A stretch of 64,000 bases of DNA, from contig OZ024740.1 of NCBI GenBank assembly GCA_964016885.1, forward strand, positions 134,106,001 through 134,170,000, written 5' to 3'. The stretch comes from Eledone cirrhosa. Its lineage: Eukaryota. The notes beneath the pieces are model-generated. The model did not search any database. It saw only the letters and a program-made list of their open reading frames with translations, and was not told where the DNA came from. Positions 20,582 through 59,146 of this stretch are shown in pieces. The number at the start of each line of letters is the position of its first letter. Positions within the stretch are counted from its first letter, which is position 1. The position numbers were made by a program, and so were the translations under genes.

Positions 20582-20698
20582 AGGTCTGACGACATGGTGT
20601 GTTTGCTTGCAGTGTACCTTCGGTTTATGATAATATTTTTATATTGTTCAAATAGCGAGGTATAGGTAACCCATACACTATAGAAACAATTGTTACCT
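20582..20698 (+). ncRNA. Type I hammerhead with 90-nt stem II (family B)
   Basis: AGGT-CTGACGA-C-[ATGGTGTGT...ATACACTAT]-A-GAAA-CAATTG-TT-ACCT. Predicted GUU cleavage after 20694. Confidence 0.85.
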
Positions 20699-20899
20699 AA
20701 TAAATTCTTTATACCCGCATTTCCGTTTCATAAACTTCTTCTCCATATTTTCTCCGGATTTTAAAACACACTTTATTATACGTTGAGCAATCTCCGACGT
20801 CGGTTGACTCCATCCAATGCAACTACTTAGTAACATTGGAATACAAATTTACTAATTATATATATATATATATATATATATATATATATATATATATAT

Positions 20900-23800
20900 A
20901 TATATTCCAAATGAACGCGAACCTCAAAGACACCTTAGGGAAAGAGTGGCATTGGAAAAAATGAAGACAGAAATTGAACTTCTTAAATTGAGGGCCCAGA
21001 CAAATGAGGAAAAAATCAAAACCATCGAAATCAACAATGGAAATCAACAATAAGACTGAAGGCCCCAAGGTAGAGAAGATCTCTAAATTATGGAAAGGGG
21101 ACTGCAACAGAGAAGAACTGAAATCCCTTCAACGCTGGGAAAAAAAGTGCCGCTTGGTTCCTAAACTATGAATCGACTTTTCAAACGGATTACACCTCCA
21201 ATAACCCGTTCATAAAAATAGGAAAACCCATAACCAAACCGCACAACAACTTCGCAAACCCCCCAGCTACTAACAAAAGAAGAAGGAAGCACCACACCGA
21301 AGATGGACTTCCCAACCTCGTTTCCATAAGAAGGAACAAAAACCCTAGAAATCATCACCCCCAGAATGACATTTACAACTTTCTCCCTCAAAGGAGACAC
21401 CATACCAAATCACTCAACTACTACGCGGATGCCTCATCGTCAAACATAGGGAAAAGATACCACCACCATGATAGATGTAACAACTTCCCGCTACAAGGGG
21501 ACAGCAAGGTAATTTCCATTTTCTCAACTCTCGCTTCCACAATACACAACAAACCCACACCACACGATACAACCGACAACGTAGGCCACCTATAACACCT
21601 CAATCCAACATGGCACAGAGAAACACACACCCATACTCGCAATATAGGAACGAAAACAGCCCCCACTTATGCCAACCTAGTCATGGGATACCTGGAAATC
21701 ACCCTCTACAATAAAGTACTAAACAAATTTGGAAACACTCTCCACTTACACATAGAAAAGAACTGGAAGCGATATCTAGATGACTGATTCATCCTTTGGC
21801 ACGAAAACATCGAGAAACTTAAAGAATTTCACACCCTTATAATGGGCTCAACACGAATATTAACTTTACGATGGAATACAGCCATCAACAACTCCCCTTC
21901 ATCGACATCTTCATTAAGATTCATAACAAAAAAATAGAAACAGACATATACTACAAGCCCATAGACTCCAAGCAATATCTTCCTTTCAACTCTTGCCACC
22001 CTAGACACGTTAAAATTAATATTCCCTACAACTTAGCCAAGAGAATCTGTACTATAGTCTCCAATAAAAACACCTGTTACTTACGGCTACAAGAACTAAA
22101 GGACACACTCATAGGCAGAGACTACCCTGCATCACTAATTGACAATGGAATCCAACGTGCCCTAAAACTCAGTACCCAGGACCTTAGACACCCTAAAGTA
22201 AATCAACCGAAACTAAAAGCTCTTCCATACATCTCCGCACACAACCCCCTCAACAATGAGGCCTTTGACACCATCCTCTAGAAAATCCCTGTGTTAAAAA
22301 AGGACCATAGAATGAAACAAATCCTTCAAACACACGATATCATAAAGAGCAAAAGACAATCTAAGTCAATGAAAAACATCCTAACACATGCCAAAGTACT
22401 GCCAACCACAACAACGAAACCCACAGTAAAAGAATGCGATAGACCCAACTGTGGCATATGCATCAACATAATAGAGAGTTCGGAATTATATTTAAAGAAG
22501 GACAACGTTTTATAGTAAAACACAATTTCACATGCGCATCAGAAAATCTAATATATGTATTAACTTGCTCAGGTTGTCGAGAACAATACATAGGCCAGAC
22601 CTAAATCAGCCTCCGCCAACGCATGACTATCCATAGATCCCAAATTAAAATACGGGAATACAGAAAAATACCACTGAGTGAACACATTGATACCTGTGCC
22701 GCCCAAAATCATCCCAACTTTAGAATCTTTCCCCTCTACAAATTTAAAGATAATGCCGCCCACACCCAGCGCATCAGCAAGGAATCTCACTTTATTAACA
22801 AATACGGACCCCGTCTAAACACTTCTCCCTAAGACGAACCCACAACATACACACGTCAACATACATACCTATATCAGCATACATCCTACATACATTTCTA
22901 TCCACATATAAACACAATGACATACATAAACACACATGTTCTATGGTGCAACACAAATATACACAAATTTGCATACCTTTTGATGTCTATAGATATAAAC
23001 GTGCCGACACACACACATACATATACGCACACATGCATTGCACACTGATGGGCACATACATATTTGTGCACAAGTATTCCCATACGGCAGGGCCTAATGG
23101 ATTCCCCTTGCAGTACGTACAATCTGGACACTCACACACACCTTGGTGTTATGACAATACTATACATCATTTCACCCCTTTTATTATTAATGTTTTTGAT
23201 GTTCTTTTGAGAGAATCGTTTTTGCAAATTACTGAAAATATCGAATAATGTACACCATTTTTACCAGTATCACAAAAATACAGGTCCTTCCACACACACA
23301 CACACACACACATACACTCATATACACACACACATATACACACACACATACACACGCGTACACTAACATACAAACAGACACACACACACACACACACACA
23401 CACACACACACACACACACACACACACACACACACACACACACACACACACACACACACACACACACTTCTCCGTATAAGTCAAGAGCTGAAAATTATTT
23501 TTCAACATGTTAAAATATCCTCCACACACATACAGACACATTCCTACTGACAGAATCCCTCTACCACGAACCACTCTGCTACACACACACACACACACAC
23601 ACACACACACGCACACACATATTTGTCTTAATAGACACCTGAACTGTTGACCTTTCAACATGACTGCAATTCACACACACATCCCTACTGACCATTATCA
23701 CAACAATGAACCTCTTTACTACACACACACACATATTTGTCTTAAAAGACTTATTTTTCAGTGACTTCTCAATCAGGCGAAAAAGGACACTCTTCGAAAA

Positions 23801-24225
23801 ACCTACATTTGGCGCAAAATCAATTTTTAACATTCACGTGACCTCTACCGACCAATCAAAATTGTTTTGACTACAACAATTTTTGCAACACGAATTGGCG
23901 CGAAACTTATAGTACTCATTCACGTGACATTCAACAACCAACCAAATCTTAATACCTCTGGAGCCACTTTTTTCACATAAAATAGGTAGAATTTCCAAAA
24001 CTGATCAGATTAGAGCAAACATCACGGGTGCTCTATCTCAAAATTATTTTTGAAAAGCATTAGAAATGCGCAACCGGTAAAAACTTAAAACTAAAACTGA
24101 ATACTAACCAATACTTATTACTAATTTTTACTTATTCCTAATTAAACTATATTTCACTGGGAAAAATTTGTCAGCATTTCCTTTTACTAATATATCACAA
24201 CTTGTGTGTTACACCTCTATTCTTT
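20900..24225 (+). mobile_element. Disrupted Neptune-like PLE (RT C-half, CxxC linker, GIY-YIG, CA-rich 3' region)
   Basis: GTKTAPTYANLVMG, WKRYLDD, LPFIDI, DIYYKPIDSKQYL..SCHP..IPYNLAKR, CGIC, FTCASENLIYVLTC..YIGQT. Stops and frameshifts; coding part ends at 22832. Confidence 0.88.
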
Positions 24226-24345
24226 TAAATATATATATATATATATATATATATATATATATATATATCATAGCGCTGATTGTATTGAAATTCGTTGAAA
24301 GTATAGAAAATCTCAAACGCAGAAAATAGCTGGAGACACCATTGT

Positions 24346-56804: not shown

Positions 56805-57556
56805 AAGTAGTTCCCAACCTTTTTTGCCCCATACCCCACCTCAGCATGTAAAAATTATTTAAGCCCCATTTAATATAAAAACAAACTGAGTTTTTTAAAA
56901 ATGTAATTACTGCAATATAACGTAGACATTTTTTAATTAAACAAAGCTAAAAAGTAGGCAAACAATTTTTTCTTCCAATTCAAGTTCATCGTAACACGCC
57001 GAGCTCAAGTTAAAATAATTATTTCTACTTTTGGCACAAGGCCAACAATTAACCAGTACATTACTGGTACTTTATTTTATTGACCCCGTAAGGATGAAAG
57101 GCAAAGTTAACCTTAGAGAGATTTGAACTCAGATCATAAAGCATGTCCGACCCTCTACCGATACTGCCAATTCACCTCCCTAGTTAAAATAATTGTTTCT
57201 ACTTTTGGCACAAGGCCAGCAATTACCCTGTGCATTACTGGTACTTTATTTTATCGCCCCCGTAATGATGAAAGGCAACGTTAACCTCGGCGGGATATGA
57301 GCTCAGAATGGCAAGGGCCGTAACTGTATGCGTCAAAGCATGGCGTCCGACCCTCTACGGATACTGCCAATCCACCTCCGTAGTTAAAATAATGAAAGTT
57401 AGTCATTTAGTGAGATCTTTGAGCTTGATGTATGCTTAAAAGTGTTACAGTGATGAACAAAATCAACTCCAAAGTGTAAATAAACAGGTTTGGTCGTATT
57501 ATATCACTTTCAAATTGCCCCTCTGTGGGGCGTGCGCCCTATATTGGGAATCACTG
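56805..57556. mobile_element. hAT/Charlie-like MITE interrupted by SINEs
   Basis: Imperfect TIRs AAGTAGTTCCCAA / TTGGGAATCACTG; 8-bp flanks only partly similar. Confidence 0.6.
57008..57393 (-). mobile_element. Head-to-tail dimer of family 1 SINE
   Basis: Two copies with AGTTAAAATAAT at about 57008, 57182 and 57382. Confidence 0.88.
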
Positions 57557-58536
57557 GCGTTAAGGGAAGTGATTTAATCGGGTCTTAACACATACATACA
57601 AACATGAAATAGGTGGATATATATATATATATATATATATATATATATATATATATATATATATATATATATATATATATATATTGCTAATTACTATGGA
57701 ATTTATTTGTGAGAGTTGCGTTGGGCTTACGCAAATATTGAAGTGTTTGCCTGCTGCATATCAACTTACCCTGTATATATATATATATATATATATATAA
57801 GCCTACGAAATACCAGTCACTGTGTATTGATCCACTCATGACGTTAGAAGATAACCGGAATGTCGCACAATAGGACTGCATCATGGAATACGTGGTTGCG
57901 AAGAGAACTTCTAAAACACACATGCGCACCTGAAATAACTATATACATTGTTTATTTCCTATCGAGACGGATTCGAGAACGGTTTTATGATTTGGCTTGA
58001 AGTGTGTTCCTATTGTTACTGAGAAAGAACATTTAGTTGTACTTTTGTTTGTAGCTAGAAACTATGTTTTCCATATAAGTAAGATGTACTATTTAACCTC
58101 AATTTTCTTTTACTTACATATTCTGATACATCAATGAATATATATATATATATATATATGTGTGTGTGTGTGTGTGTGTGTGTGTGTGTGTGTGTGTGTG
58201 TGTGTGTGTGTGTGTGTGTGTGTGTGTGTGTGTGTGTGTGTGTGTGTGTGTGTGTGTGTGTGTGTGTGTGTGTGTGTGTGTGTGTGTGTGTGTGCATATG
58301 TGTGTGTGTGTGTGTAAAGGATAAGTATTGATTTATTCGTAAGTACTATTGCAATAAAGTCAACTGTTTAATTGTGATTAGATGCATCCATTAACTGCGA
58401 ACTGTGATTAAATTTATCTATCAACTGAAAAATTGTGATCATGTGTATCCATCAACATGTGACTGTAACGTTAACTTCAAAGCTGATAAAAGTGTGTTGT
58501 GGCGTATATAAAAATCATTAGCAAAGTACGTAAAGC

Positions 58537-58932
58537 TTCCACAACCGGTACGAACCTTCAACGCATATTCTGTTCATAAAGAGCTTAGTATCTATGCACA
58601 CACAGACACACACTCACATTTAAGTATATATACGTATTTATATATATATATATATATATATATATATATATATATATATATATATATATATATACATACA
58701 TATATATATATATATATATATATATATATATATATATATATATATATATATATATATATATATATATATATATATATATATGTATGTATATATATATATA
58801 TATATATATATATATATATATATATATATAAATACGTATATATACTTAAATGTGAGTGTGTGTCTGTGTGTGCATAGATACTAAGCTCTTTATGAACAGA
58901 ATATGCGTTGAAGGTTCGTACCGGTTGTGGAA
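58537..58932. repeat. About 396-bp palindrome centred on (TA)n
   Basis: About 100 bp of unique sequence is mirrored exactly on both sides of the (TA)n tract. Confidence 0.92.
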
Positions 58933-59064
58933 TATATATATATATAATATATATATATATATATATATATATATATATATATATATATATATATATATAT
59001 ATATATATATAATGAGAGACGTAAAATAAGAAAATTATAAAATTAACTTACTTACTAAAATTTC

Positions 59065-59146
59065 ACTCCCAACTAATTAGTTTCTGAAATGGAATAAATA
59101 TATTTTCCGAAGAAGATATAGAGAATCATTTCGTCGTCAGGGAAGT
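59065..59146 (-). ncRNA. Type I hammerhead with UUCG-capped 49-nt stem II
   Basis: ACTTCC-CTGACGA-C-GAAATG..TATATCTTC TTCG GAAAATATA..CATTTC-A-GAAA-CTAATTAG-TT-GGGAGT. Confidence 0.88.

Follow-up and report, generated by a model that had tools for sequence, protein, structure and literature searches.

Here we analysed hammerhead ribozyme motifs in a 64,000-nt stretch of the Eledone cirrhosa genome (GCA_964016885.1, contig OZ024740.1, positions 134,106,001 to 134,170,000), referred to below as the window. The motifs form a real, selected, and partly new set of variants inside the known association of hammerheads with Penelope-like elements (PLEs). Judging from sequence and predicted folds, we consider it reasonably probable that they are type I hammerheads carried in the pseudo-long terminal repeats (pLTRs) of Hydra-clade PLEs and of derivatives without an open reading frame (ORF), in which the position pair 10.1-11.1 at the base of stem II (the slot) has been freed from G-C and self-cleavage is likely slow and dimeric.

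Hammerheads with a mismatched 10.1-11.1 slot

An earlier note on this DNA had described five hammerhead families with a mismatch at the slot, and a scan for CTGANGA and GAAA combined with folding recovered all five, each in its place and with the core described. Families A-E share the type I core CTGANGA-(C or A)-stem II-A-GAAA, a GUH triplet, a palindromic stem III, and an open stem I of 4-8 bp. They have no common sequence outside the core, as had been proposed; blastn of regions of ~200-830 nt returned only (TA)n and 14-nt matches. The family A hammerhead (20582-20698, + strand) has C10.1·A11.1, a stem II of 90 nt, the palindromic stem III ACAATTGT, a GUU site, and a stem I of 4 bp. Its inverted pLTR copy is at 17521-17637 (−), with arms at 17471-17809 and 20411-20748. 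Family B (44169-44303, +) has C·A, an 8-bp stem I, and a stem II of 100 nt in which the fourth position is C·C. Family C (59065-59146, −) is also C·A, with a 49-nt stem II that carries a UUCG cap in the window copy, while family D (47937-48046, −) has A·A and an 83-nt stem II that folds as a three-way junction. A second family D hammerhead lies in tandem, 839 nt away (47098-47207, −). Family E has A·A and a stem II of 27 nt, both in an inverted pLTR copy (29784-29844, −) and in a duplicate block (37168-37228, −). In all five, pairing resumes past the mismatch and stem I closes, which agrees with the earlier description, and in the window copies of B and D the resumed pairing is 2 bp followed by a second mismatch.

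The tandem and inverted copies, the pLTR location, and the palindromic stem III (self-duplex of -6.4 to -10.7 kcal/mol across A-E) are those of dimer-type PLE hammerheads. At 10.1-11.1, families A-E have C·A or A·A in place of a Watson-Crick pair. Because natural exceptions at this position are already known, among them the U10.1·U11.1 noted in PMC3088659, we count A-E as a hammerhead variant.

The mismatch is a trait of whole families. Among the best-matching genomic copies, a set biased toward the window and with some rows duplicated through overlapping loci, C·A occurs in 44/44 rows of family A, 30/31 of B, and 46/46 of C, and A·A in 32/32 of D. The family consensus is therefore C·A in A, B, and C and A·A in D, where a normal Watson-Crick pair had been named in advance as a result that would speak against the variant. 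Family E is more varied (A·A 20, C·A 12, U-A 7, and a single C-G from a damaged-core copy), with A11.1 fixed in 39/40 rows while 10.1 is A in 20, C in 12, and U in 7. A set of 20 of the 34 distinct variants of family C shows 100% pairing in the basal stem II, with two doubly changed pairs, and an unpaired slot in 20/20; the covariation score was reached by 0/500 shuffles, a control that ignores relatedness. The B superfamily retains C·A across a switch from C3-G8 to U3-A8. The fixed slots within A-D, together with covariation around the unpaired C·A of family C, bear out the suggestion that the deviation reflects selection and not decay.

To place these families, 500 matches from the genome were grouped into 68 clusters. 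Of these, 18 in which the symmetric register is unpaired at positions 2 and 3 were set aside as bulged types and likely false matches. Among the 50 families left, the slot is U·U in 12, G-C in 10, A-U in 9, A·A in 6 (one call being a 1:1 tie), C·A in 5, and A·G, G·U, U-A, and A·C in 2 each, with C-G, G·A, and G·G found in none of the 50. A11.1 had been described as invariant, which does not hold at this scale, since A11.1 mismatches occur in only 11/50 families. When 11.1 is a purine, the slot is mismatched in 13/15 families, compared with 14/35 when it is a pyrimidine (Fisher p 0.004; p 0.019 with relatives merged; p 0.002 in 28 multi-locus families). Slots are of the following kinds: purine paired with pyrimidine (G-C, A-U, G·U), U·U, and a purine at 11.1 left unpaired (C·A, A·A, A·G).

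The junction could also be read as a 9a bulge followed by G10.1-C11.1 and an extra A before G12. This was ruled out, as the second pair has no G-C bias and the purine-pyrimidine bias sits in the first slot. Because the pair after the slot is G-C in only 6/38 families, the 10.1-11.1 numbering used earlier is right. The 9a bulge and G10.1-C11.1 of minimal PLE hammerheads are thus missing from the A-E type and present in the family at 8330, which belongs to a Neptune-type element. That element (5491-8209) has its hammerhead at 8330-8372 (+), with a stem II of 18 nt. A second Neptune-type element carries a core at 61995-62043 (−) with a 9a bulge, G-C, and a 13-nt stem II, and with the proximal stem I unclosed in the window copy. 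Both elements have CX4CX2C linkers and served as comparison; the hammerheads at 8330 and 62005 had been set apart earlier by a C before GAAA and short stems, and they do differ from A-E in this way. They match the minimal metazoan PLE type of Cervera & De la Peña 2014 (PMC4209133). As described there, that type is like ours in pLTR location, dimer architecture, a U3-A8 covariant core, and low predicted monomer activity, but it has a bulge between 9 and 10.1 and a highly conserved G10.1-C11.1, whereas the junction here is symmetric and lacks that pair.

On an unrooted reverse transcriptase (RT) tree of 12 families with a linked hammerhead, A11.1 requires at least 3 changes, on three separate RT lineages, and a single clade for all A11.1 families is rejected (approximately unbiased (AU) test, p 1.5e-6). 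Of 24 rows, 12 entered this tree; the rest could not be assigned a hammerhead, had a doubtful hammerhead link, repeated a family already included, or covered too little of the RT. Several hammerhead links rest on one or two copies, and an earlier tree was inspected before the AU test. The trait recurs in Hydra-clade PLEs across RT lineages, and the proposal of one subtype combining A11.1 with a long stem II does not hold.

The motifs are abundant. A slot-blind descriptor gave 106 matches in 1 Mb of the genome compared with 3, 3, and 1 in shuffled and 0 in reversed DNA, and a wider descriptor gave 132 compared with 5, 1, and 2 in shuffles of the same sample. The sample consisted of 100 stretches of 10 kb, 20 picked near known copies and 80 evenly spaced on contigs C1-C4. 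The 80 evenly spaced stretches held 105 matches, or ~130 motifs per Mb on the four largest contigs, with C·A or A·A in 15/105 and any mismatch in 48/105. Since extending ~130 motifs per Mb to the 3.0-Gb genome gives a total on the order of 10^5 motifs, this figure is an extrapolation. The first descriptor missed family 9, which has a long stem III, and the descriptor is also blind to the cores at 47203 and 51103. With Rfam covariance models, no hammerhead reached the gathering score anywhere in the window, the Neptune-type motifs included. None was found at E<=10 on 59020-59200 and 45620-45780, nor among the 150 of 229 weak Rfam matches that were listed. The Rfam library misses these motifs because the core pair is often mismatched and stem II is often long, so the variant escapes standard models, as the earlier note anticipated.

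Several copies in the window had not been described before (17521-17637, −; 45669/46112, +; 51103, +; 33108/40234, +). Among them, family F (45669-45718, +) has A·A with a minimal stem II of 13 nt and a second copy 443 nt further on (46112-46161). The family F unit (45355-46301, 443-nt period) contains short internal repeats, a long hairpin that prolongs stem I, and an inverted partial copy, with no ORF seen in that interval. Family G (51093-51215, +), a sister of family A, has A·A and a 90-nt stem II. Further hammerheads of other families, with G·U, A-U, or G-C at the slot, lie at 4547-4618, 5330-5401, 8618-8684, 27930-28000, 36743, and 52642; most of them combine stems I of 8-11 bp with a C·Y mismatch four positions into stem II.

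Hydra-clade elements and ORF-less units

The elements of families A, B, and E are Hydra-clade PLEs, in the case of A by the domain order and motifs of its predicted protein. The family A ORF (17896-20172, +; 782 aa, stop to stop from 17824) is a single frame encoding RT with a GIY-YIG endonuclease last. Its motifs are RWR at residue 61, DKT at 141, YRDD at 372, CxCX5C at 642 (CNCTKPGTC), CxxC at 740 (CKLC), and CxH at 768 (CNH). A C-terminal GIY-YIG endonuclease, RWK, DKT, a CxCX5C linker, CxxC, and CxH are given as Hydra-clade marks in Craig 2021 (PMC8557442, section 11), and YRDD and DKT occur in the published Hydra proteins of File S4. The ORFs had been labelled Naiad-like on the basis of YRDD. 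Naiad PLEs have an N-terminal endonuclease, a CxC linker, and DKA (PMC8557442), none of which is found here, and the Naiad assignment was ruled out by the C-terminal endonuclease and DKT. Naiads are like these elements in targeting (TA)n, and for some of them the same source lists hammerhead matches, marked "core" or "half core", that fall outside every descriptor. Pfam returned no family for the Hydra ORFs.

Family A has more than 100 genomic copies at 87-98% identity and appears young, with many long open frames at 96-98%. Families B and E are tied to Hydra endonuclease by tblastn. For family B, the endonuclease ends upstream in 13/30 rows, mostly 520-620 nt away, and a broken Hydra RT remnant at 41710-43494 (−), 85% identical to family B RT, is likely the inverted partner of the pLTR at 44169. 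Family E is linked to its ORF through the sense copies at 33108 and 40234. These copies (33101-33161 and 40227-40287, both +) have a C3U-damaged core and their own Hydra endonuclease 1.7 kb (30600-31377) and 1.4 kb (38069-38843) upstream.

In 60 loci per family, C and D lacked an own ORF; a stray Hydra endonuclease stood upstream of one C/D-type unit (locus L259). Tandem periods are 499-528 nt for C (unit ~520 bp) and 839 nt for D (unit ~840 bp). Because they have no ORF of their own and form tandem units of these lengths, C and D appear retrozyme-like. (TA)n insertion is directly visible in the element flanks (seen, uncounted), and since the units share these flanks and the inversions, they are likely mobilised by Hydra-clade proteins. 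Four of the five families had been placed beside RT and endonuclease sequence; an own Hydra ORF was found for A, B, and E and none for C and D. Non-LTR retrozymes (PMC7229834; Li et al. 2026, bioRxiv 10.64898/2026.07.22.740005) are likewise described as ORF-less tandem units with a type I hammerhead and a proposed PLE origin. Compared with these, C and D are longer, with purine-containing mismatches, stems II of 49-83 nt, PLE-like inversions, and fixed tails. Retrozymes are reported as abundant circular monomeric RNA, and families C and D come from genomic DNA. Helix II of the axolotl retrozyme HHR_Amex2 starts with a U·U mismatch, and this ribozyme is cleavage-active as a dimer (PMC7229834).

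The hammerheads of published Hydra elements (PMC8557442) resemble those described here in being type I, in the 3' pLTR, with a short palindromic stem III, no 9a bulge (24/25), and a frequent 10.1-11.1 mismatch. By our count from File S2, the 25 families have U·U (14), U·C (1), G·U (2), G-C (7), or a bulge plus A-U (1), and the 15/25 mismatched ones are listed as "canonical". As published there, they differ from ours in lacking A11.1, in having stems II of ~26 nt or less, and in having no annotated pseudoknot. File S2 also contains PLE-X1_cBra, a Chlamys-related plant-lineage element with C·A and a short stem. In the literature found, repeated C·A or A·A cores with stems of 49-116 nt and a pseudoknot class involving the 5' tail are undescribed for PLEs; examples of C·A or A·A may exist in Lünse et al. 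2017 or in the supplementary data to Cervera 2014 and Perreault 2011, which lie outside that coverage. The suggestion that the variant is missing from catalogues thus stands for the C·A/A·A set, within that literature, but not for slot mismatches in general, since published Hydra hammerheads mostly carry U·U and PLE-X1_cBra carries C·A.

Hydra-clade PLEs have been described as a small clade. They are very abundant here, with 42,000-46,500 first-look candidates per RT query and many subfamilies at 30-75% RT identity; diversity was sampled with three single-protein queries and sampled stretches. The family at loci L247 and L371 has dozens of equal-scoring copies with 784-aa frames and is likely still active. 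The hammerhead of this youngest Hydra family (L371:3189-3306) has a U3-A8 core, a G-C slot, a stem II of 54 nt, and a 19-nt stem III with an inner palindrome that may allow folding as a monomer. Another locus (L199:281-3381) is an array in which a 310-bp unit recurs at least 11 times, every copy carrying a minimal hammerhead with A-U at the slot and a stem II of 14 nt; it has the typical form of a non-LTR retrozyme. In the window, a third, broken PLE type (20900-22800, +; YLDD, frameshifted, with its own GIY-YIG) is nested right after family A, and no hammerhead could be attributed to it. A broken ORF at 48686-50055 (−) resembles the C-terminal part of a long interspersed element (LINE)-type RT with a cysteine-rich end; it is not PLE-related and has no Pfam match. 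A repeat common to 40710-40767 and 15009-15113 gives a tRNA-like match at gathering score and is probably a tRNA-derived short interspersed element.

Stem II and a predicted pseudoknot

The expanded stem II had been tied to the mismatch, and this stands only as a tendency. For C·A and A·A, stems II of at least 45 nt outnumber shorter ones 9:2, compared with 15:24 for other slots (p 0.016), but p is 0.055 with relatives merged and every common slot includes long stems. A·A also occurs with stems II of 13 nt (45669) and 27 nt, and long stems also accompany G-C, A-U, U·U, and A·G.

Where stem II measures 46-61 nt, complementarity exists between its first internal loop and the tail immediately 5' of stem I. 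In family C, the loop strand ATTCTC (59126-59121) and the 5' tail GAGAAT (59154-59149) form a predicted pseudoknot (59121-59154, −). Other families have TTTCC/GGAAA, ACCTC/GAGGT, TCTTT/AAAGA, TGCTC/GAGCA, AAACTC/GAGTTT, and TCTTCTCA/TGAGAAGA in the same places. With fixed windows, families with a stem II of at least 20 nt, and at least 5 Watson-Crick pairs required, the pseudoknot is predicted in 10/54 families compared with 2.3 in cross-family permutations (p<1e-4). It is concentrated in stems of 40-65 nt (8/19) and found in 1/17 above 65 nt. The ten families (C and nine related clusters) collapse to five sequence-distinct groups. In these ten, the predicted stem I-stem II pairing covaries, and it is lacking in A, B, D, and E. 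Family C keeps at least 5 pseudoknot pairs in 82/86 rows, and the pseudoknot is 98% paired in the 20-variant set. Slots in this class are C·A, A·G, G-C, and A-U, and none of its families has a linked Hydra ORF.

Pseudoknotted hammerheads are known (PMC3088659; Zhan et al. 2024, PMC11300833). Here, the predicted pairing would join a type I 5' tail to an internal loop 5-8 nt up a long stem II, in animal retroelements, and the solved pseudoknotted hammerhead (PMC11300833) keeps G10.1-C11.1, unlike families A-E. A different feature is a C opposed by C or U at position 4 of stem II, which 14/38 families have, B included. Families A, D, and E have neither the pseudoknot nor the position-4 C·Y. In the sister families A (20582-20700) and G (51093-51215, locus L372), 8 nt on the 3' strand of stem II could base-pair with the strand at the cleavage site or directly 3' of it, and A and G differ there by two compensatory changes. 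This could represent an alternative, inhibitory fold or a switch.

Cleavage and alternative explanations

In the mechanism we propose, a purine 5' of G12 would be tolerated at 11.1 only as long as it stays unpaired; were it in a Watson-Crick pair, the sheared G12·A9 pair beside the general base would be disturbed. C·A and A·A would then recur as allowed states and not as one subtype. The sheared G12·A9 pair is documented in hammerhead structure work (PMC11300833). A long stem II may supply substitute contacts between stems I and II, namely the 5-8-bp pseudoknot of the first internal loop with the 5' tail in the family C class, and the C·Y mismatch at the fourth position in family B. Elsewhere, hammerhead pseudoknots raise rates by orders of magnitude (PMC3088659, section 7). 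Two ribozymes would pair via their palindromic stems III and then cut after GUH, resembling the dimer-type cutting of other PLE (PMC4209133) and axolotl (PMC7229834) ribozymes; the axolotl U·U hammerhead cleaves, and better as a dimer (PMC7229834, section 15). Where copies stand in tandem, cutting by the upstream ribozyme would fall ~210 nt ahead of the following ORF start codon (site computed in a family A tandem) and would yield unit-length or circular RNA.

Element 3' ends are fixed beyond the cleavage site, at +48/53 and +162/164 in A, +56 and +176 in C, and +154/160 in D. Because they lie 48-176 nt past the site, the copied RNA would be uncut or re-ligated there, and weak cleavage would be tolerated or favoured. 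Slow or protein-assisted cleavage would fit such ends, as with the Anolis PLE hammerhead, for which protein is needed, cleavage is dispensable for insertion in vitro, and no reads end at the site (PMC11167929). Families A and C each have two fixed 3' ends ~110-120 nt apart, exceeding the 30-40-bp PLE tail of Craig 2021 (PMC8557442).

Several points count against slow dimer cleavage by a loosened core. Genomic 5' ends do not cluster at the cleavage site, with 0 within 3 nt for C or D and one at -4 for A, so cut RNA is unsupported as the usual template end. Family G keeps the core with a proximal stem I of 1 bp in both copies seen, one of them beside a long ORF, and for this reason some families may not cut. 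For the five motifs, the hammerhead fold is 1.3-7.2 kcal/mol less stable than the minimum free energy structure, and self-cleavage of A-E, which we consider likely, is a prediction from fold and conservation. In stems above 65 nt, including those of A, B, and D, the pseudoknot gives no signal (p 0.25-0.47) and was dropped, and any compensation by stem II in these three families is hypothetical. The pseudoknot geometry was also chosen after examples had been inspected. With respect to the slot rule, the U-A subfamily of family E (7/40 rows, or 10/38 in a second count) is an exception, families are interrelated and clustered by arbitrary thresholds, and copies per family are the best matches to the window.

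An alternative is that the core persists for its RNA structure, serving RT binding, the folding of the template, or the formation of dimers or circles, with cutting dispensable and the loose slot and swollen stem II reflecting lost catalytic constraint. The dispensable cleavage and absent read ends of the Anolis element (PMC11167929), the unclustered 5' ends, the missing proximal stem I of family G, and the high conservation of G10.1-C11.1 in other PLE hammerheads (PMC4209133) would all be consistent with such a role. We nevertheless regard it as unlikely, since dozens of families that cannot be aligned retain every catalytic position, the GUH-type triplet, the U3-A8 covariation, stem I, and a palindromic stem III, the slot obeys a non-random rule, and the predicted pseudoknot links stems I and II as the active fold requires.

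Somewhat less likely again is that C·A and A·A with A11.1 form a subtype of their own under positive selection, with A11.1 engaged in a new contact that acts together with the long stem II. A11.1 is fixed while 10.1 varies in family E and between the sisters A and G, and the enrichment with long stems and the at least 3 changes on the RT tree point the same way. Against this, the enrichment weakens once relatives are merged, the short A·A stems and the long stems with other slots break the association, the pseudoknot class mixes four slot states, and family 16 varies at 11.1 with 10.1 fixed. Chance matches, or independent decay of G-C pairs in dead copies, might be expected in AT-rich, repeat-laden DNA with 1-5 false matches per Mb in controls, but this is highly improbable and is refuted for A-E by copy counts, with the mismatch fixed in young families with intact ORFs at 96-98% identity and stem II covarying around it.

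Slow dimer self-cleavage by type I hammerheads with a relaxed slot thus remains our preferred explanation. A bolder version, which is plausible although we lean slightly against it, is that the ~10^5 motifs are active hammerheads of an uncatalogued Hydra-clade radiation, in which G10.1-C11.1 was repeatedly replaced by C·A, A·A, or A·G and stem II became a docking arm, through either the 5'-tail pseudoknot or the C·Y loop. If so, this would represent a widened natural catalytic core and a built-in library of rate-tuned ribozymes, and present descriptors would undercount animal ribozymes, possibly including the Naiad "half-core" motifs.

Two features merit testing: the slot, relaxed yet bound by a rule, and the pseudoknot class. 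G10.1-C11.1 has been treated as nearly part of the core, and search descriptors presuppose it together with a short stem II. The family-level slot rule can be tested directly and cheaply by biochemistry, and the pseudoknot class offers a concrete possible rescue of a weak core. For the role of PLE ribozymes in transposition, a young, high-copy system with intact ORFs is now at hand. If the motifs cut, the permitted hammerhead core is wider than catalogued; if they do not, they would be a clear case of a ribozyme fold kept for another job.

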